45,189 nt of DNA from a virus. A program made the translations under genes and the position numbers. The stretch lies in IMG/VR virus record IMGVR_UViG_3300045988_017593, positions 1 through 45,189 of that record; one strand, given 5' to 3'. Below the pieces are notes generated by a model that ran no database searches, was not told the origin of the DNA, and saw only the letters and a program-made list of their open reading frames with translations. This document shows, one piece after another, positions 9,345-45,189 of this stretch (its first letter is position 1; the number at the start of each line of letters is the position of its first letter).

Positions 9345-9425
9345 GGGTAAACACAGGACTGCTGATGCGGCCGGCGGCGCACGCAAAGCGTGGCCGGAGC
9401 TATCCACGGCAGGGAAAATTTAATC

Positions 9426-10601
9426 ATGGAGAACATCGTCAACAGCTTCACCGCGCTCTATGCCGCCTACAAAAAGACCCGCTGCGGCAAGCGCGACAAC
9501 CCCACGGCCATGCGTTTCCGCATGGAGGCCGTGGAACGCACAGACGACCTCGCCCGGAGGCTTCAGCGACGCGAGTACACCTTCGGCCCGTATTACCCCT
9601 TCAAGGTCTACGAGCCCAAGGAACGCCTCGTGCTCGCCATCGACTTCGAGGGGAAGGTCGTGCAGCACTCCCTATGCGACAACGTCCTCGAGCCTTGCTT
9701 CACCCGGCGCCTGATCCGGGACAACTACGCGGGGCAGATCGGCAAAGGCACCCACGATGGCCTTGACCGTCTCGCCAAAGCTATGCGCCACTACTTCTTC
9801 AGCAGGAAGGCGGCCGACGAAGCGGCCCGCAGGGCTGCCGGCCTGCCATACCGGCCGATGGAGGCGTGGGACTACGCCGACGGCTGGGTGCTCAAGGGAG
9901 ATTTTTCAAAGTTCTTTTACACCCTTCTCCATGCTGTGTGCTACGAGAAGGCGAAGAAGGCCCTCGCAGTCATCGAGGACGACGAGCTGCGCGACTTCGT
10001 CGAGTGGCTCCTGAGTCAGGTCATCGACAGCACGCCGGATCCTGGCATCCCGATCGGCAACCAGAGCAGCCAGCTCCTCGCTCTGCTCTACCTCGACGAC
10101 TTCGACCACTGGCTGCGGGATGACCTCGGCCTCGTCTATGGCAGATACATGGACGACTTCTACATCATCAGCAGCGACAAGCTGCTGCTCCGTCGGATCC
10201 TGAAGGAGATCGAGGAGTACATCAAACCGCTCGGCCTGCGGCTGAACAAAAAGACGCAGATCTTCCCACTGAAGAATGGCATCGACTTCCTCGGCTTCCA
10301 CACCTACCTCACGAGCACCGGCAAGGTGGTCAGGAAGGTGCGAGCCAAGAGTATCGACAACATGAAGCGAAAGATCCGCAAATACCGCGGGCTGGTGGAC
10401 TCCGGCAGGATGACGCTCGAGGGCGTCGTCCAGTCCTATGCGAGCTGGTGCGGCCACATATCACACGGCAACACCTACCACCTGTGGCAGAGCATGGACT
10501 CCTACTTCTTCGGCTACTTCCCGGAGCTGAAACCAAACCCGAAAGGAGACAACACACATGGCCCAAAAACTGAGCAACCTCGCAAACAAAGCGAAGGTTA
10601 A
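9426..10601 (+). CDS. DGR-type reverse transcriptase
   Basis: YMDDFYI catalytic motif and IGNQSSQLLALLYL (the DGR-specific [ILV]G..SQ motif). TR lies about 195 nt upstream. ATG 9426 (MENIVNSF) is preferred over the ORF-track start. Confidence 0.9.
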   Translation: MENIVNSFTALYAAYKKTRCGKRDNPTAMRFRMEAVERTDDLARRLQRREYTFGPYYPFKVYEPKERLVLAIDFEGKVVQHSLCDNVLEPCFTRRLIRDNYAGQIGKGTHDGLDRLAKAMRHYFFSRKAADEAARRAAGLPYRPMEAWDYADGWVLKGDFSKFFYTLLHAVCYEKAKKALAVIEDDELRDFVEWLLSQVIDSTPDPGIPIGNQSSQLLALLYLDDFDHWLRDDLGLVYGRYMDDFYIISSDKLLLRRILKEIEEYIKPLGLRLNKKTQIFPLKNGIDFLGFHTYLTSTGKVVRKVRAKSIDNMKRKIRKYRGLVDSGRMTLEGVVQSYASWCGHISHGNTYHLWQSMDSYFFGYFPELKPNPKGDNTHGPKTEQPRKQSEG

Positions 10602-12267
10602 GTTCGGCAGCCTTCACGGCAAGCCGATCATCTGGATCGTGGCAGACAAAAACCACGCCGGCTACCCCTCGGGCAGCGTCACCCTCGTGACCAATCAGAT
10701 CATCAAGATGCTCTGCTTCGATGCAAAGGAGAGCTCCAACGGAAACAGCGACCGCAAAAGCTACGGCAACAACCGCTACATCCACTCCAACATCCGGCAG
10801 TGGCTCAACAGCTCCGCAGCAGCAGGCGCGTGGTACACTGCGCAGCACTCCGCTGACGCACCTCCCTCCTCTGCGAACGTCTGGAGCAGCACCAACGCCT
10901 ACGACACGATCGCCGGCTTCCTGAACGCCTTCACCGCAAACGAGCGGGCCGCCCTTCTGGACACCACCATCACGGTCGGCAAGAGCTCCACAGATGGTGG
11001 CGGGACTGAGACCTGCACCGACAAGATCTTCCTCCTGTCCTGCACTGAGGTCAACCTCTCCGGCGACCACACCTGCGGCAGCAAGCTGGCGATCTTCAGC
11101 GACAACGCGAGCCGCGTCGCTACCGTGACCGCTGAGTGCGTCGCAAACTCCAACTACTCCAGCAACCCAGCCTCCGGGGCTGCGTGGTACTACTGGCTGC
11201 GCGACGCCTATGCCGGGTCGGCCAACATCGCCCGCGGCGTCTACACCGATGGCACGCTGCACTGGAACCGCGCCTACTACGGCTACTACGGCCTGCGCCC
11301 CGCTTGTAATCTGTCCTCTGATCTCCTGATCTCCGACTCCACCGACTCGGATGGCTGCTACACGGTCATCTACAATCAGGCCCCGACTGCGCCGGCTTCC
11401 ATCACCGTCCCGACTGAGGTGATCGGCGGCGAAAACCTGAGCATCTCGTGGGGCCAGAGCACCGACGCCGACGGCAACCTGAGCGGCTACACCCTCGAGC
11501 GCAAGTATGATAGCGGCACATGGACGCAGATCTACAAAGGCGCCGCCCGCAGCTACTCCGACCCCATCACCTACGGATGGACGAGCGTGCAGTACCGCGT
11601 CAAGGCATACGACACCGCAGGCGCCGAGTCCGCATACACGACCAGCGCGACCCGCAACGTCATCAACAACCGCGCACCCGTCATCAGCGGCAGCGACGGA
11701 GATCTCGGCAGCTACACCGCGGCGCCTCCCGCCTTCGACTATACCGTCACCGACGCCGACGGCCATCAGGTCACAGTCGTCGAGAAACTGGATGGCACGA
11801 AGATCAAGGAGTACACCGTAACGCTCGGCGAGGCCAACAGCTTCGCGATCAGTGCGGAGACGTGGCAGAAGATCCTCAACGGATCCCACACCATCACCAT
11901 CACCGCCACCGACGCGAAGAACGTGAGCGCCGTGAGGGCTATGACCTTCACCAAAGCGGTCAACGCCGTCGAGTTCGAGCAGACCCTCGCCATGGCCGCG
12001 GATGATATGCCGACCAAGGCGCTCGTCAACGTGCAGGGCCACTTCCCGACAGGCTGCACTCTGACGATCTGGATCTGCAACAACGGCAACGACGCAGCGC
12101 CCGCATGGGAGGACATCACCAACAAGGCCCTCAACGGGACGAAGCACTTCTTCACCAACACCGCCAAGACAGCCGATGCGTGGGGCGTGAAGATCAAGGT
12201 CAAGCTCCTGCGCGGATCTGCGACCGAGACCTGCTACATCCAGAGCGTCGGCGGTAACTTCGCATAA
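10558..12267 (+). CDS. DGR target protein 1: N-terminal C-type-lectin-fold variable domain, then FN3/Ig-like domains (probable receptor-binding tail fibre component)
   Basis: VR encodes residues about 218-250, ending in GLRPAC. Downstream, PTAPASITVP...LSISWGQSTDADGNLSGYTLERKYDSGTWTQIY...YRVKAYD is FN3-like. SD AAAGGAGACAACACACATG. The start overlaps the RT 3' end by 44 nt. Confidence 0.85.
   Translation: MAQKLSNLANKAKVKFGSLHGKPIIWIVADKNHAGYPSGSVTLVTNQIIKMLCFDAKESSNGNSDRKSYGNNRYIHSNIRQWLNSSAAAGAWYTAQHSADAPPSSANVWSSTNAYDTIAGFLNAFTANERAALLDTTITVGKSSTDGGGTETCTDKIFLLSCTEVNLSGDHTCGSKLAIFSDNASRVATVTAECVANSNYSSNPASGAAWYYWLRDAYAGSANIARGVYTDGTLHWNRAYYGYYGLRPACNLSSDLLISDSTDSDGCYTVIYNQAPTAPASITVPTEVIGGENLSISWGQSTDADGNLSGYTLERKYDSGTWTQIYKGAARSYSDPITYGWTSVQYRVKAYDTAGAESAYTTSATRNVINNRAPVISGSDGDLGSYTAAPPAFDYTVTDADGHQVTVVEKLDGTKIKEYTVTLGEANSFAISAETWQKILNGSHTITITATDAKNVSAVRAMTFTKAVNAVEFEQTLAMAADDMPTKALVNVQGHFPTGCTLTIWICNNGNDAAPAWEDITNKALNGTKHFFTNTAKTADAWGVKIKVKLLRGSATETCYIQSVGGNFA
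11211..11305 (+). repeat. DGR variable repeat 1 (VR1)
   Basis: 95-nt hand alignment to TR gives 11 mismatches, every one at a TR adenine (e.g. AAC to ATC, GGC, TAC, CAC, CGC; AGG to TGG). In frame with the target ORF. Confidence 0.9.
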
Positions 12268-15864: not shown

Positions 15865-16647
15865 TTATAGGACTTTTTGTTGCTTCAGGAAGTCAGCGGC
15901 GGCTTTATAGACCTTCGTGCCTCTGTTCGGCCCTCTGAAGTCATCGACCTCACGGCCTTCCAGCGACTTCAGCAGCGCAGGATCCGCGGCCAGACACTCG
16001 CCGCAGGCCGTCAGCCGGTCGTACACCGGCAGCAGGCGGGGATCCGTCATGCGGCCGCCATTTTCCTGAAGATAGACCGCGTAGGCATACAGCTCACCGA
16101 TCTGCGGCCCCTTCATCTGGCTGACCATATAACCGAGCAGGGCCTCGGCTCCGACAAAGCGGGAAAACTTCACGCCGGCGGCGTGCGCATACCGAGAGAG
16201 GCCGGGATCTGGCGCAGCTTCGTCCTCATCGACGATCCGGCTGATGATGGCACTGAGGTCATCCTTGCAGGCTCCCTCGGGGATCATGGCCTCAAGCTCC
16301 AGCGCGTAGTCCATTTGGCGCTCGGTCGGCTCCACCTGCTGCTCGATCTCAACGGTCAGAGGCTCGACCAGCCCGTCAGCCACAGCCGCAGCTCTGGCAG
16401 CGGCCTCGTCCTGCATCTCGTATCGCTTCGTATTTTTTCGGCCGGTACTGCCGTTCACGCCGGACACACGAAAGCGACCGAAGTTCACAAAGCCGCCCGA
16501 GGGGCTCACATACCCGCCGACGTCGGCCAGCGGCATCTCGCCGGGCGTGCGCTGCTTCACCTCCACCTCGACAACCTTCAGCTCGCTACGCACCGTGATC
16601 GGCGCCGGAGCGGGCTCTTTTTTCTTAAACAGGTCAAAAATGCCCAT
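15865..16647 (-). CDS. Hypothetical protein, the only credible minus-strand gene (lysogeny-expressed moron candidate)
   Basis: ATG at 16647 (MGIFDLFKKK...) follows GGAGGATAAC on the minus strand. 260 aa. Internal PTERQMDYALELEAMIPEG...LSAIISRI motif. No family recognised. Confidence 0.7.
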   Translation of the reverse strand: MGIFDLFKKKEPAPAPITVRSELKVVEVEVKQRTPGEMPLADVGGYVSPSGGFVNFGRFRVSGVNGSTGRKNTKRYEMQDEAAARAAAVADGLVEPLTVEIEQQVEPTERQMDYALELEAMIPEGACKDDLSAIISRIVDEDEAAPDPGLSRYAHAAGVKFSRFVGAEALLGYMVSQMKGPQIGELYAYAVYLQENGGRMTDPRLLPVYDRLTACGECLAADPALLKSLEGREVDDFRGPNRGTKVYKAAADFLKQQKVL

Positions 16648-16692
16648 GTTATCCTCCTTCCAGATGACCACCTCACGTTTTTCGTCTTTAGT

Positions 16693-16760
16693 CATCTTTG
16701 GGATAATTTTATCACGAAAATGGCAGTATAGTCAATGTGGTCTACCCATCTTTGGGATAA
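16693..16760. promoter_or_regulatory. Divergent control region: two 14-bp direct repeats CATCTTTGGGATAA plus palindrome GATAATTTTATC
   Basis: Exact repeats at 16693-16706 and 16747-16760. Palindrome at 16702-16713. The region is an AT-rich island in a GC-rich genome. Confidence 0.55.
16706..16735 (-). promoter_or_regulatory. Candidate leftward promoter (TTGACT - 18 nt - TAAAAT on the minus strand)
   Basis: The -35 complement AGTCAA is at 16730-16735 and the -10 complement ATTTTA at 16706-16711. The -10 overlaps the first direct repeat. Confidence 0.4.
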
Positions 16761-17057: not shown

Positions 17058-17087
17058 TTGACATTATAGAGCATTTGCTCTATAATA
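17058..17087 (+). promoter_or_regulatory. Consensus sigma-A/sigma-70 promoter (TTGACA - 17 nt - TATAAT) overlapped by a perfect 25-bp palindrome
   Basis: TTGACA at 17058-17063 and TATAAT at 17081-17086. Palindrome ATTATAGAGCA-TTT-TGCTCTATAAT at 17063-17087. Confidence 0.75.
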
Positions 17088-17131
17088 AGAGGCAGAAAGA
17101 CGCCACAGGACACCAAGAGGGAGGGATCCAG

Positions 17132-17377
17132 ATGGACAACCAGAAAAGCAACCTGCAAGGGCTCAGAAAAAAGGCCGGACTCTCGCAGTCGAAACTCGCC
17201 GCCGCTGCCGGCATCAACGTCCAAGTCCTTCAGCAGTATGAGCGAGGGGCTCGAGATCTGAACGGCGCGAAGCTGCTGACACTCCTGAAGATCTGCAACG
17301 CTCTGGAGTGCAGGCTGGTCGACATCATCACGGACAACGACACACTCGACCAGCTCGGGAGCTACGGCGAAAGGTAA
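17132..17377 (+). CDS. XRE-family HTH transcriptional regulator (Cro-like position)
   Basis: LRKKAGLSQSKLAAAAGINVQVLQQYERGARD is an XRE HTH. ATG follows GAGGGAGGG. Confidence 0.75.
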   Translation: MDNQKSNLQGLRKKAGLSQSKLAAAAGINVQVLQQYERGARDLNGAKLLTLLKICNALECRLVDIITDNDTLDQLGSYGER

Positions 17378-17385
17378 ACAGCGAA

Positions 17386-17414
17386 GGGACGGCCAACGTG
17401 GCCGTCCCTTTTTT
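17386..17414 (+). terminator. Rho-independent terminator
   Basis: GGGACGGCC-AACGT-GGCCGTCCC followed by TTTTTT. Confidence 0.8.
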
Positions 17415-17444
17415 CTATTCTATGCGGCAAGGAGGATCTTCGCC

Positions 17445-18503
17445 ATGAAAAAAGCAAAAACAGAGCCAAAATTCAAGCACATGAGCTTCACCGATCGCAT
17501 CCGACTGGAGGAGAAAATCAAGGCCGGCAAAACCAAGCAGCAGGCGGCCGACGAGCTCGGCTTCCACGTCAGCACCATCTACCGGGAGCTGAAGCGCGGC
17601 ACCTATGAGCACCTGAACAGTGACTACACCACCGAGATCAGGTACAGCCCGGACATCGCCGACGCCAACTACCGGCAAAACCTGAAGGCCAAGGGCGCCC
17701 CGATCAAGCTCGGGAACGACTACGCCCTCGCGGAATACATCGAGACGAAGATCGCCGACGAGAAGTACAGCCCCGGCGCCGTCCTCGGAGAGATCAAGCG
17801 CCTCGGCCTCGAGTTCTCTGTCACGATCAGCAAGCCGACCCTCTACCGCTACATCGAGCTCGGAGTGTTCGGCCGGATCACCAACGCAGACCTCCCGGAG
17901 AAGTCCAAGAAGAAGCAGACCAAGCGCAAGGTCAGAGTCTCCCGGCCGCCCGCGGGCGAGAGCATCGAAAACCGTCCGGCCGAAGTCGACGATCGCAACA
18001 CCTTCGGTCACTGGGAGATGGACACCGTCGTCAGTGCCGGCCACGCAAAAGAGACGCTGCTGGTGCTGACCGAGCGCCTCACCCGCCACGAGTTCATGAT
18101 CCTCATGCCAGATCGGACGGCGGCCAGCGTCGTGAAGGCACTCAACCGCATCGAGTGGAAGTTCGGCAAGCACTTCCCGGAGATCTTCAAGACCATCACC
18201 TGCGACAACGGCGTCGAGTTCTCTGACTGCTATGGTCTCGAGAAGAAGCGCCGCGGCAAAGGCAAGCGCACCAAGATCTACTACTGCCACCCTTACAGCT
18301 CCTACGAGCGAGGAAGCAACGAGAAACAAAACAGAATGATCCGGCGATGGCTGCCGAAGGGCACCAGCTTCGCCAGCGTCGACGCGAAGGAGGTCGCCCG
18401 GATCGAGGCGTGGCTCAACAACTACCCCCGCGAGATCTTCGGCTTCGAGACCTCTGCCGCTCTTTTTGAGCGGCATCTGGAGGTCATTTTAAGGGCTGCA
18501 TAA
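17445..18503 (+). CDS. IS30-family DDE transposase
   Basis: N-terminal HTH (AADELGFHVSTIYRELKRG) and a catalytic core with FGHWEMDTV..., TITCDNGVEF and YSSYERGSNEKQNRMIRRWLPKG, typical of IS30 transposases. GC3 usage is like the rest of the phage. Confidence 0.85.
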   Translation: MKKAKTEPKFKHMSFTDRIRLEEKIKAGKTKQQAADELGFHVSTIYRELKRGTYEHLNSDYTTEIRYSPDIADANYRQNLKAKGAPIKLGNDYALAEYIETKIADEKYSPGAVLGEIKRLGLEFSVTISKPTLYRYIELGVFGRITNADLPEKSKKKQTKRKVRVSRPPAGESIENRPAEVDDRNTFGHWEMDTVVSAGHAKETLLVLTERLTRHEFMILMPDRTAASVVKALNRIEWKFGKHFPEIFKTITCDNGVEFSDCYGLEKKRRGKGKRTKIYYCHPYSSYERGSNEKQNRMIRRWLPKGTSFASVDAKEVARIEAWLNNYPREIFGFETSAALFERHLEVILRAA

Positions 18504-18520
18504 AATATTTTTGCGTTTTT

Positions 18521-18571
18521 TCGCGATAACTACTTGACAAGTCGAGTGTCCAGTAATATAATTATCGCGAG
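18521..18571 (+). promoter_or_regulatory. Consensus promoter (TTGACA - 17 nt - TATAAT) bracketed by inverted repeats TCGCGATAA / TTATCGCGA
   Basis: TTGACA at 18534-18539 and TATAAT at 18557-18562. Inverted repeat arms at 18521-18529 and 18563-18571. A further TCGCGAT copy at 18602-18608. Confidence 0.7.
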
Positions 18572-18654
18572 ATAAGTCGAAAGCCCTCGGGCCGACCGTT
18601 CTCGCGATTTTTTTATCGTTTATCAAGGGCACACCCCGGAAAGGAGGCGAGAAA

Positions 18655-18933
18655 GTGAAAGCCTACAAATACCTGAGCCTGCAAGACCGCCAGCAGTTCG
18701 AGCGAGACTACGCAGCCGGCGCCAGAGTCGCCGACATCGCAGAAAGCCTCGGGATCCACACAGCCACAGCCTATGCGGAGCTGGCCCGCGGCACAGTCCT
18801 CGACGAGTATGGCGAGCCCGCCCTCGACCAGAACGGTCGGCAGGCATACAGCGCGGACGTCGCGCAGCTAAAAGTACAGGAGGGGCTCAGACGCAGGGGC
18901 AAGCGCCACACAGCGGCCGCGGCCCACTCATAA
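18655..18933 (+). CDS. Stand-alone HTH protein resembling the N-terminal DNA-binding region of the adjacent IS30 transposase
   Basis: LSLQDRQQFERDYAAGARVADIAESLGIHTATAYAELARGT...YSADVAQLK parallels the transposase residues FTDRIRLEEKIKAGKTKQQAADELGFHVSTIYRELKRGT...YSPDIADAN. GTG follows GGAAAGGAGG. Confidence 0.65.
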   Translation: MKAYKYLSLQDRQQFERDYAAGARVADIAESLGIHTATAYAELARGTVLDEYGEPALDQNGRQAYSADVAQLKVQEGLRRRGKRHTAAAAHS

Positions 18934-20750: not shown

Positions 20751-20926
20751 CCGCGAAGTGCGTCGGCTGCGGCCTCGACTGGAATGTCAGCATATACCAG
20801 AAGATCCCGGCCACCGGCTACATCTGCCCGCACTGCGAGAGCAAGCTGAGAGCCGGCGCCACCCTGAAGCAGATCCAAGCCGAGCCGAGAGGCCGGCGCC
20901 CATATACGAAAGGAGCAAAACCATGA
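20747..20926 (+). CDS. Small zinc-ribbon protein
   Basis: CVGCG...17 residues...CPHC. ATG overlaps the upstream stop. Confidence 0.5.
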   Translation: MTAKCVGCGLDWNVSIYQKIPATGYICPHCESKLRAGATLKQIQAEPRGRRPYTKGAKP

Positions 20927-21618
20927 AGAAAGCACTCAAGAGCAGCCCCCGCGGCGCGGCCTTCACCTTCGCAGGCCAGCGCTGGATCGTGCTGGAACAT
21001 GACCCCGCAGGCCGTACCCTCTGCCTGACCGAGAACATCGTCGAGGAGAAAGCCTTCGACGTCGACAACTGCAACAACTTCGCCAAGGCCAGCAGCAACG
21101 CCTACCTGAACGGCCCCTTCCTCGACAACCTGCACGAAGCAGCCGGCGGCAACGCCGGGGCCTTCCTCCGCAGCGAGCTCGATCTGACCGCCGATGACGG
21201 CCTGAAGCACTACGGCACCTGCAACGTCACCATCTTCCTCCTGACCGTCGACCAGTACCGCCGCAACCGCGACGTGATCCCCAACGCAGACGACTGGTGG
21301 TGGCTCTCCACTGCGGTCAGCACTGCCGAGAATGGGTACGAGCATAGCGCCCGCCGCGTCTACGCCGATGGCGCGCTGGGCGGGGACGGCGCCTACTACG
21401 GCGGCCTCGGCCTGCGCCCCGCTTGTTATCTGGACTCCGATCTCCTGATCTCCCTCGACGAGGAGGACGTCGCTGCCGATCAGGCGGGTGAGATCGTCAA
21501 GGAGCTGGCTGAGGAGCTGGGCGGCACATTTGCCACCGCGGATCAGCTCAAGGCGGCCGCTGCCTTCATGTTCGGCACCCTGAGAGCAGCCCGCGATCAG
21601 GAGGTGGCCCATGAGTAA
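20923..21618 (+). CDS. DGR target protein 2 (231 aa), a paralogue of the target 1 N-terminal variable domain, located in the early operon
   Basis: Shares with target 1: RWIVLEH / IIWIVADK, NAYLNG / RQWLNS, TIFLLT / KIFLLS, WWWL / WYYWL and GLRPAC.L.SDLLIS. Carries VR2. No signal peptide or TM seen. Start and stop both overlap neighbouring genes. Confidence 0.85.
   Translation: MKKALKSSPRGAAFTFAGQRWIVLEHDPAGRTLCLTENIVEEKAFDVDNCNNFAKASSNAYLNGPFLDNLHEAAGGNAGAFLRSELDLTADDGLKHYGTCNVTIFLLTVDQYRRNRDVIPNADDWWWLSTAVSTAENGYEHSARRVYADGALGGDGAYYGGLGLRPACYLDSDLLISLDEEDVAADQAGEIVKELAEELGGTFATADQLKAAAAFMFGTLRAARDQEVAHE
21346..21424 (+). repeat. DGR variable repeat 2 (VR2)
   Basis: 79-nt hand alignment to TR 9153-9231 gives 17 mismatches, all at TR adenines. 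Same reading frame relative to TR as VR1. The identical GC-rich 3' end GGCCTGCGCCCCGCTT is present. Confidence 0.88.
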
Positions 21619-43618: not shown

Positions 43619-45139
43619 ATGGCAAACGAGTACCTCTACGGCGCATACGGCCACATCGGTGAAACCGTGGCACAGAGCGCCGTACAGGCAGGCACCACGC
43701 CGGTCTATATCGGCACCGCGCCTGTCAATCTCGTGCGCGGCTTCGGCGAGGCCGGCATCATCAATGAGCCGATCAAGCTGACCAATATGATCGACGCGCA
43801 GAAGAAGCTCGGCTACGCTGCCGACTGGGGCACCTTTACCCTCTGCGAAGTCATGACCGCGCACTTCAACAACACCCTCGGCAACATTGGCCCGATCTAC
43901 GTCATCAACGTGCTGGATCCGGCTGAAGGTAAGCACCGCAAGGAAGTCGAGACGACCAAGTCTCTGAGCTTCGCCGGCGGCCGCGCCGAGTTCGTGAGCT
44001 CCACCATCATCCTCGACACCCTGACTATCGCAAAGGCTGGCGACGACGCCGGCAACTACGAGGAGGGCGTCGACTATGCTGTGGACTACAACTTCACCAA
44101 GGGCAGCGTCATCATCACCAGCCTGATCGAGGACGCACCTCTGGCCGGCACCCTGACCGCCAGCTACTTCGACGTCGACGACTCCGTGCTGGAGGACGCT
44201 GACATCATCGGCGGCGTGACTGCCTCCGGCGAATACAGCGGCCTGAGCTCCATCGCTCTGCTGTACCCCGAGCAGTTTGCAGTCTGCAACCTGATCGCAG
44301 CGCCCGGCTGGAGCCACAGCCCTGCCGTCTACAATGCTATGATCGCGGCCAGCCGCAAGATCAACGGCCACTGGGACGCCTTCGTCGTCGCCGACCTGCC
44401 TCTGGTGGATCCCACCAACGCCGCAGCCGTCGACACCATCGAGAAGGCGATCGCGTGGAAGCAGAACAACGCCTTCAACAATGAACGCTCTAAGGTCTAC
44501 TGGCCGCAGGCCGTCGACAATCTCGGCAACGTCTACCACCTGAGCACGCTGGCGACCGTCGAGCTCATGAGAGCCGACTTCAGCCACAACAGCGTCCCGA
44601 TGGAAACCTGCGGCAACAAGGCCGTCCCGGTCATCAAGCAGTATTTCGGAGCCAACGCCACAAACCGCGGCTTCGATCAGCAGACCGGCAAGGAGCTGAC
44701 TCAGAAGGGCATCTGCACCGTCGTCGCGTGGGCCGGCGAGTGGGTATTGTGGGGCGACCACACCGCTGCCTATACCTACGGCGCCGAGGTGGATCCTCGC
44801 GCCATCTTCGACGTCTCCATGCGTATGCTGATGCACATCACCAACAGCTTCCAGCGCGAGTGGAGCCCCGAGATCGACGAGCCCATGACCCGCGCTCTGA
44901 AGGATCGCATCATCAACCGCGAGCAGGAGAAGCTCGACGGTTATGTCAGCATGGGCGCCCTGATCGGCGACCCCGTGATCCTGTTCCTCGAGTCCGAGAA
45001 CAGCACCACCGACATCATGAACGGCGACTTCAGATGGGACATCGCAGTCACTCCTACGCCTCCCCTCAAGAGCGCCAGCGTCTACGTCGCATACACCGAC
45101 GCAGGCTTCTCCGTTTACTACGAAGGAGGTGACGCATAA
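43619..45139 (+). CDS. Contractile tail sheath protein
   Basis: 506 aa, starts MANEYLYGAYGHIG..., and is followed by the tube gene across the circular junction. Confidence 0.85.
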   Translation: MANEYLYGAYGHIGETVAQSAVQAGTTPVYIGTAPVNLVRGFGEAGIINEPIKLTNMIDAQKKLGYAADWGTFTLCEVMTAHFNNTLGNIGPIYVINVLDPAEGKHRKEVETTKSLSFAGGRAEFVSSTIILDTLTIAKAGDDAGNYEEGVDYAVDYNFTKGSVIITSLIEDAPLAGTLTASYFDVDDSVLEDADIIGGVTASGEYSGLSSIALLYPEQFAVCNLIAAPGWSHSPAVYNAMIAASRKINGHWDAFVVADLPLVDPTNAAAVDTIEKAIAWKQNNAFNNERSKVYWPQAVDNLGNVYHLSTLATVELMRADFSHNSVPMETCGNKAVPVIKQYFGANATNRGFDQQTGKELTQKGICTVVAWAGEWVLWGDHTAAYTYGAEVDPRAIFDVSMRMLMHITNSFQREWSPEIDEPMTRALKDRIINREQEKLDGYVSMGALIGDPVILFLESENSTTDIMNGDFRWDIAVTPTPPLKSASVYVAYTDAGFSVYYEGGDA

Positions 45140-45189
45140 TGGAAAAGTGGCTTGACCTGAAGGGCCCCATCCTCGCCGACACCGTGTAC
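45091..45189. repeat. Second copy of the 99-bp end overlap (includes the first 51 nt of the tube gene)
   Basis: Identical to 1-99. Confidence 0.95.

Follow-up and report, generated by a model that had tools for sequence, protein, structure and literature searches.

An IS30-family transposase as the very probable integrase of a 45-kb temperate gut phage whose whole genome would be the mobile unit

An IS30-type integrase has already been published for Faecalibacterium phage Lagaffe (2018) and for the IScream phages (2025), and the phage described here, IMG/VR record IMGVR_UViG_3300045988_017593, joins that class. By the window we mean the whole stretch of DNA that was analysed, positions 1-45,189 of that record, and the gene in question is the IS30-family DDE transposase gene at 17445-18503. 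Lagaffe forms virions, has a cos site and an atypical IS30-family integrase, and is flanked by direct repeats in its host (PMC5883640). In the IScream phages (Wirbel, Hickey et al., Nature 2025) one end of the prophage bears a full-length IS30 gene that faces outward, and the other a truncated copy that faces inward. There are about 1,780 IScream candidates in a gut virus catalogue, and the IScream phage of Blautia hansenii circularises and forms DNase-protected particles (PMC12823448). A 2026 preprint also uses the IScream label.

The insertion sequences (ISs) of the IS30 family are the other point of reference. Circles of IS30 hold their inverted repeats (IRs) abutted about 2 bp apart, with a strong promoter, Pjunc, at the IR-IR junction (PMC9333248), and the IS30 transposase is able to replace lambda integrase (Kiss 2003, as cited in PMC12823448). 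The IS30-type element IS1630 leaves target duplications of 16-26 bp (Calcutt 1999, as summarised in PMC3317919). We consider it very probable that the window represents, in its circular form, a temperate, cos-packaging myovirus of gut Clostridia of the Lagaffe/IScream type, that its integrase function is supplied by the domesticated transposase, and that the mobile unit is the entire 45-kb genome.

The transposase matches the NCBIfam equivalog model NF033563 (transpos_IS30) at 235 bits against a cutoff of 80, over model positions 1-266 of 267. It has the Pfam domains HTH_38 (residues 9-52, 36.3 bits, cutoff 27) and rve, and it falls in phrog_4646 of PHROGs, a family specific to phages and annotated 'transposase, integration and excision', at 455 bits. 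Its catalytic triad is D193 (HWEMDT), D254 (TCDNG) and E288 (SYERG), with gaps of 60 and 33 residues, which is the DD(33)E spacing that is a hallmark of the IS30 family; these motifs are kept in Lagaffe and in Clostridium phage Saumur. An earlier note on this DNA, made by a model from the letters alone, had called the gene a full-length IS30-type transposase, and this is borne out. The note was also right that its codon usage resembles that of its neighbours: GC content at third codon positions (GC3) is 0.85, and 0.72-0.88 in the other plus-strand genes. The ratio of nonsynonymous to synonymous substitution rates (dN/dS) is 0.161 between the window and a relative with 89% identity (L127; L numbers are our labels for public loci and contigs), which is purifying selection. 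The best matches among GenBank phages are phage proteins at 44-57% identity (Lagaffe, nd4/nd12, Saumur), whereas passenger elements of the IS30 family, as annotated in phages of Staphylococcus and Lactococcus, are about 30% identical or less. A PDB sequence search with the transposase gave no match. We infer that the transposase is the integration and excision enzyme of the phage.

The window carries an exact 99-bp terminal direct repeat (1-99 and 45091-45189), which is the assembly overlap of a circular or concatemeric molecule and not a biological repeat. The assembly is therefore circular, with 45,090 unique bases, in agreement with the earlier note. Circles of about 45 kb, full-length and near-identical to the window, were assembled from more than 12 samples; one public contig, ERZ27260773 k119_241201, is 92,084 bp long, about twice the genome length. 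The packaging, head, contractile-tail, lysis, replication and recombination modules are all complete and their open reading frames (ORFs) are intact. In Pfam and PHROGs we recognised a lambda-type gpA terminase, a lambda-family portal, a ClpP-type protease and an E-type capsid protein; tail tube, baseplate and tape-measure proteins; an endolysin, three HTH_3 regulators, methylases, and a reverse transcriptase with a DUF6273 protein that resemble a diversity-generating retroelement (DGR); and, for replication and recombination, an RNase_T exonuclease, Gam, ERF, SSB, a replication initiator, a DnaC-like ATPase and RecU. HTH_3 regulator genes lie just 5' of the transposase gene, with a divergent promoter region, as the earlier note had described.

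Pfam coverage consisted of precomputed calls on collinear contigs for about 7.4-32.3 kb and a scan of ORFs of at least 150 aa elsewhere, and PHROGs was run on eight proteins that had no Pfam match. Neither a tyrosine nor a serine recombinase was found in this screen, which left out ORFs below about 150 aa outside 7.4-32.3 kb, and the sole rve-type protein of the window is the IS30-family one. The earlier note had likewise recognised no tyrosine or serine integrase, and had found no enzyme that breaks and joins DNA besides the transposase and a RecU-type resolvase; its observation is confirmed, with the addition that the recombination proteins ERF and Gam, neither of them an integrase, are also encoded.

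We mapped the ends of the mobile unit by aligning public contigs with an identical 352-aa protein, found by exact-protein look-ups, together with further look-ups for the left end and a motif scan of IMG/VR. Two kinds of contig carry the identical transposase: in one the phage continues into a 92-aa ORF, and in the other unrelated bacterial genes follow directly after the transposase. Eight aligned sequences are identical through 18544 (…CGCGATAACTACTTGACAAGTCG), 41 bp 3' of the transposase stop codon, and diverge beyond it. Seven distinct host flanks follow this right tip, namely the neighbourhoods of PALP, obg, HGD-D, MS-channel and GerA genes, contig L012, and the site of a deletion remnant that we describe below. 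The left junctions came from the IMG/VR motif scan and from contigs matching early proteins of the phage, the 92-aa protein among them, in look-ups; here identity begins at 18547 (TGTCCAGTAATATAATTATCGCGAG…), and again seven distinct host flanks precede it. Because seven right and seven left host flanks meet the phage at fixed tips, the integrated element is the genome in its entirety, from 18547 round to 18544.

The 9-nt IR core TTATCGCGA occurs exactly twice in the window, in inverted orientation, each copy 15 nt from its tip, and the symmetry of the phage IRs is limited to this inner core. A search of the window found no second copy of the 25-nt left end, even with 3 mismatches, and no copy of the left end or of the IR core 5' of the transposase gene. 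Since the matching inverted end lies 2 bp 3' of the right end, the IR-bounded unit is the whole 45 kb and there is no compact IS.

These ends bear directly on the choice that the earlier note had left between the phage's own integration enzyme and a compact IS that landed in an intergenic region. If the second were right, a passenger IS30 insertion sequence of about 1.1 kb (about 17415-18508) would sit in the regulatory intergenic region and the phage would integrate otherwise or never. The gene is indeed a bona fide IS30-family transposase, IS30-family passengers are known in phages (phiPV83 and bIL311 are among our tblastn matches), and a 13-nt imperfect, A/T-rich inverted repeat (92% complementary) brackets the ORF, pairing 17448-17460 with 18508-18520; these are probably the weak candidate IS ends of the earlier note. 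However, the left arm of this repeat lies inside the coding sequence (codons 2-5), and integrated copies all break at 18544 and none at 18508-18520. There is no mapped end or IR core 5' of the gene, while the partner end is 2 bp downstream. The gene is at the same place in every relative recovered, close and distant, no close relative without the segment was recovered, its GC3 equals that of phage genes, and no alternative integrase was found. An IS30-family insertion sequence is defined as an element of 1.0-1.25 kb with one ORF, IRs flanking the gene on both sides and a 2-3-bp target duplication; here the IRs do not flank the gene on both sides, and the only paired flanks that we have, those of the remnant, show a 15-bp duplication. 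We therefore give the passenger reading next to no credence. The integration-enzyme reading gains from two of the checks that the earlier note had proposed: host DNA meets the phage at 18544 and at 18547, one boundary 41 bp past the transposase stop codon and the other 2 bp on, and the comparison of relatives finds the gene conserved in place.

The spacer between the abutted ends varies. Ten variants occur in independent circular assemblies (AG, GC, TG, CC, CT, AA, AAA, CCG, CA and GA) with invariant tips, and in the Lagaffe lineage the spacer also varies (AA vs CGG). A variable short spacer between invariant abutted ends is best read as an IS30-type circle junction, unlike a site-specific att core. 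A circle with abutted IRs about 2 bp apart is an IS-element trait that the phage does have (ten spacer variants, more than 12 samples).

The transposase might instead act as a site-specific recombinase on a defined attB, in the hot-spot or IR-targeting mode of IS30, rather than by transposition of low specificity. An IS30 transposase can mediate site-specific recombination, judging from the lambda-IS30 chimera (Kiss 2003, as cited in PMC12823448 and PMC5883640), and two sites are each shared by two samples, obg (L005, L049) and BipA (L029, L034). At the obg site (L005 11101-11130, and L049) a perfect hairpin with a 13-bp stem, AAAAAGACTTGGC-TTTG-GCCAAGTCTTTTT (z = -6.3), begins directly at the right tip; it is probably the obg terminator. 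Set against this are at least seven distinct right flanks and seven distinct left flanks with no common core sequence, and shared sites may reflect common ancestry of the lysogens. The junction holds only the variable spacer of 2-3 nt, so no att core is carried by the phage. We do not claim hairpin or terminator targeting, as only the obg site was significant, one of the seven sites tested. Site-specific action thus seems improbable to us, and we prefer transposition of the whole genome into weakly specified targets.

The identical transposase adjoins host DNA of 42-62% GC (flanks of L004, L005/L049, L008, L014, L040, L041 and L176), and the obg genes of two hosts of the identical-transposase phage are only 77% identical, which together suggest that one phage lineage lysogenises more than one species. 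We also tried the obg region of L004 as the empty site for the insertion in L005; this failed, as the hosts differ (77% identity).

A 5,139-bp element occupies a single fixed chromosomal site, with an FGGY-kinase gene on one side and an OTCase gene on the other (L014 9894-15032; also L015-L023, L042 and L043). It is an internal-deletion derivative of the window phage, 97-99% identical to it where sequence has been retained. Both ends are still present, the left one together with the 92-aa ORF and the right one together with a transposase frameshifted to 260 aa, and the element carries about 1.9 kb that is not in the window (DUF6061, His_Phos_1). Public contigs with the 92-aa protein number 210, against 34 with the transposase; the remnant is the commonest context of the 92-aa protein and is about six times commoner than the intact phage in public contigs. 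The remnant has the original phage ends and is bracketed by a 15-bp direct duplication, CGTTAAGAGTTTTCA. We found no further short two-ended derivative that was convincing among 113 related loci.

The abundance of this decayed element, with its frameshifted transposase, could mean that the phage is a cryptic prophage resembling a composite transposon, in which IS30 ends move a defective remnant and the circles are transposition intermediates rather than the genome of a viable virus. The published model of the IScream layout does term it composite-transposon-like (PMC12823448). The window itself speaks differently, with its complete phage modules and intact ORFs, as do the near-identical full-length circles of about 45 kb from more than 12 samples, and relatives form virions (PMC12823448, PMC5883640). 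We find the cryptic-prophage idea very hard to sustain, and continue with a temperate phage that would integrate as a unit.

In this phage the transposase would bind the IR cores (TTATCGCGA) and join the ends into a circle, picking up 2-3 flanking host bases, and it would cleave both junction tips and insert the genome into a new, weakly specified target. Several points tell against this account. The action of the transposase on the mapped ends is a step that we infer, and excision may be of the copy-out or of the cut-out kind. Both junctions of one full-length prophage were not recovered in five exact-protein look-ups, in a metagenome scan, which returned the remnant only, or in an IMG/VR scan with the right-end motif, which gave no match; contigs L034 (75.8 kb) and L176 (45.9 kb) probably hold both. 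The match between spacer and flank is one anecdotal case (L011 with L007), and overlap across all flanks is no better than chance, five of the eight 2-nt spacers matching some flank where about 4.5 are expected; we do not claim that spacers derive from flanking dinucleotides. Finally, the only target duplication is a single event, taken from the deletion remnant, and its 15 bp are far above the 2 bp of IS30.

A megablast of the window at 15-21 kb against GenBank phages found no nucleotide-level relative. By tblastn against the same phages, proteins 44-57% identical are found in temperate phages of gut Clostridia: Faecalibacterium phage Lagaffe, nd4, nd12, Clostridium phage Saumur, Dulem virus 34 and human-faecal contigs named 'Bacteriophage sp.'. 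The Lagaffe homologue, 57% identical, is annotated 'integrase, IS30 transposase family', and in the prophage-form record of Saumur the transposase gene is at the extreme end and points outward. Relatives of the transposase are found in 73 representative genomes, almost all of Clostridia, with hosts among Oscillospiraceae, Anaeromassilibacillus (89%), Christensenellales, Lachnospiraceae and Flavonifractor, and the gene keeps its position even where identity drops to 48%, Lagaffe and Saumur being among the relatives concerned. IMG/VR adds 40 contigs with a relative of the transposase, and many of these contigs stop 40-80 nt past the gene. Four relatives (L069, L078, L085 and L094) lie in bins labelled Akkermansia, Acidiphilium, Muribaculaceae or Bacteroidaceae, taxa remote from Clostridia, and most likely these are mis-binned phage contigs.

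The likeness to the IScream phages is close. Both have no conventional integrase, an outward full-length IS30 gene, an inward catalytically dead copy, and varied hosts and sites. The two ends of a prophage are adjacent in the circular genome, so the IScream layout is the arrangement at 17445-18933, and the window is identical to it once permuted. A difference is that PMC12823448 treats the truncated copy as decaying, whereas here the small ORF is under purifying selection. Particle formation has been shown for relatives, and the phage gene complement of the window is complete. PMC12823448 makes no mention of inverted repeats, target duplications, spacers, promoters or minicircles. The end positions, the variable spacer, the 15-bp duplication, the purifying selection acting on the small ORF, and the split promoter and hairpin described below appear to be absent from the published descriptions that we searched. 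The earlier note had thought an IS30-type integration enzyme unusual for a cos-packaging phage with a lambda-type head; that judgement was sound, but the arrangement had already been published (PMC5883640, PMC12823448).

Lagaffe shares the gene order of lysis genes, small regulators, IS30 transposase, small HTH ORF and early genes with exonuclease, Gam and ERF, and it too is a cos-type myovirus with a DGR reverse transcriptase and with direct repeats flanking it in the host. It belongs to another genus-level lineage (Lagaffevirus), its IR core is AAATGCGAAA as against TTATCGCGA here, and its junction promoter matches at 9/12 positions. The length of the Lagaffe repeat is not stated in the text or supplements of PMC5883640 that we searched. 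The Lagaffe prophage coordinates exceed the phage record by 50 bp, a mere hint of the repeat length.

With IS30 of E. coli the phage shares the DD(33)E triad, the N-terminal helix-turn-helix (HTH), the circle of abutted IRs and a loose choice of target, and its predicted junction promoter likewise has the -35 in the right end. IS30 is 1.2 kb long and its Pjunc drives the transposase, whereas the phage is 45 kb, has its transposase at the far right end behind a terminator, has a junction promoter that faces the HTH-only paralogue and the early operon, and shows a duplication of 15 bp rather than 2 bp. IS1630 of Mycoplasma fermentans, also of the IS30 family, offers a precedent for the 15-bp duplication and the obg insertion, with long duplications and reported inverted-repeat targeting in the summary that we used (PMC3317919); it is a simple IS of a mollicute, while here one of seven sites is hairpin-like and one duplication was measured. 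Mu and Mu-like phages such as Mushu also integrate the phage genome with a DDE transposase. Mu, however, replicates by transposition, packages by the headful with attached host DNA, and uses MuA and MuB, whereas the window phage has a gpA terminase and lambda-family portal, only 2-3 nt at its junctions, its own replication-initiator and DnaC-like genes, and an enzyme of the IS30 family. In conjugative transposons of the Tn916 type, circularisation alters transcription across the joined ends and couples expression to the excised state. The recombinase of Tn916 is of the tyrosine type, and its joint is crossed by transcription from a promoter that is already there, whereas in the window phage the promoter itself is built from two halves.

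Table 1. Positions in the window of the mapped ends, the circle junction and the neighbouring genes and signals.
Feature	Position	Strand	Details
Upstream module	17058-17411	+	Perfect promoter 17058-17086; HTH_3 gene 17132-17377; strong terminator 17383-17411
Full-length IS30-family DDE transposase	17445-18503	+	352 aa, ATG start; outward-facing at right end of integrated prophage
Right end (IRR-equivalent)	18504-18544	+	Tip 18544; IR core TCGCGATAA 18521-18529; -35 TTGACA 18534-18539
Junction-spanning sigma-70 consensus promoter	18534-18562	+	TTGACA-17 nt-TATAAT, 12/12; toward small HTH ORF and early operon
Junction spacer	18545-18546		2 nt, AG in the window, between abutted ends
Left end (IRL-equivalent)	18547-18572	+	Tip 18547; -10 TATAAT 18557-18562; IR core TTATCGCGA 18562-18570
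Terminator-like hairpin in left end	18564-18614	+	Stem 18564-18572 with 18600-18608, then T7 run 18608-18614
HTH_38-only paralogue of transposase N-terminus	18655-18933	+	92 aa; next gene 3' of transposase

The 92-aa ORF, which the earlier note had overlooked, begins 108 nt inside the left tip and points inward. Its protein has HTH_38 as its only Pfam domain. In PHROGs it scores 91 bits against phrog_11420, a small family distinct from that of the transposase, and it matches phrog_4646 over the N-terminal 82 positions; its alignment to residues 1-85 of the transposase shows 35% identity. Counterparts occupy the corresponding place in Lagaffe (82 aa) and in Saumur (60 aa). Between the window and the relative with 89% identity its dN/dS is 0.165, so the ORF is a maintained gene and not debris. 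The protein is probably a regulator or an end-binding factor.

The junction also carries a predicted promoter. Its TTGACA is 5 nt from the right tip and its TATAAT is 10 nt from the left tip; with the -35 in one end and the -10 in the other, the promoter is therefore absent unless the ends are joined. The 45 kb contain just one other perfect sigma-70 site, where 0.00 are expected, and no other plus-strand site of at least 10/12 lies 5' of the early operon of 15 kb. All six -35 positions match in each of 10 circular junctions, whereas in seven integrated left junctions the host supplies a match of 2-4/6. The split layout is found in 11 of 13 circular-form relatives (48-100% transposase identity) despite diverged IR cores, and shuffling gives P <= 0.005 in six lineages. 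As predicted from these motifs, the junction promoter would be active only in the joined state and dismantled by integration.

Directly 3' of the -10 is the left-end hairpin, whose stem reuses the left-end IR core and its complement. Its RNA fold has -25.7 kcal/mol (z = -3.8). Nine lineages keep the structure together with a T6-8 tail, and 9 of its 12 pairs show compensatory changes. Transcription that enters from the host or from the transposase gene would stop at the hairpin. Its role could be to insulate against such read-through, to form the 3' end of the transposase mRNA when the genome is circular, or to offer a second site for protein binding. We considered whether transcripts from the junction promoter start within the 5' arm of the hairpin and so escape it, and rejected this, as the stem still forms in the fold.

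Of the upstream module, the promoter at 17058-17086 is the other perfect sigma-70 consensus of the genome, and its 17-nt spacer and -10 include a palindrome, TATAGAGCA-TTT-GCTCTATA, that resembles an operator placed over the promoter of the HTH_3 gene. Nearly all variants carry this gene in identical form. The transposase start codon is 33 nt 3' of the strong terminator, and a promoter scan of the window showed no recognisable promoter of the transposase's own. The module of HTH gene and transposase is kept in the deletion remnant.

Elsewhere in the window, the DGR-like module (9390-12267) has a reverse transcriptase (RVT_1) gene that overlaps the gene of a 569-aa DUF6273 protein, which is likely its variable target. 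A second, smaller DUF6273 protein is encoded in the early region at 20923-21618, and DGRs are also found in Lagaffe and in the 'prophage02' of 2026. The sole convincing minus-strand gene (15865-16695) encodes 276 aa without a Pfam match, assigned to phrog_20233 (unknown function). A promoter-like site of its own is at 16735-16706. With the lysis genes on one side and the regulators on the other, its position would suit a gene expressed in lysogeny, for example one for superinfection exclusion or defence.

A split promoter that faces an early operon of about 15 kb, in this phage and most relatives, raises the possibility that early or lytic transcription is wired to genome topology, being active in the circle, whether incoming or excised, and silent in the lysogen, with the hairpin insulating the prophage and the 92-aa paralogue acting as an end-binding regulator. 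We offer this tentatively and think it rather doubtful. In Lagaffe and two distant lineages the promoter match is 8-9/12, which is not significant alone by shuffling, and the hairpin lies directly 3' of the junction promoter and still folds in the transcript from the predicted start site, so the output of the junction promoter into the early genes is uncertain. If the idea is true, excision rather than loss of a repressor would be the committing step of induction, and the Pjunc circuit of IS30 would have been repurposed as a lysis-lysogeny switch.

Sequence alone supports a whole tailed-phage genome behaving as one giant IS30-type transposon, and it places the window phage in a class abundant in the human gut, with insertions in several species of host. 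Annotation pipelines that require a tyrosine or serine integrase would label such phages 'virulent' or 'incomplete' and would mis-set prophage borders. The tips, the spacer, the duplication, the split promoter, the hairpin and the HTH paralogue are experimental handles on integration, excision and the decision between lysis and lysogeny.

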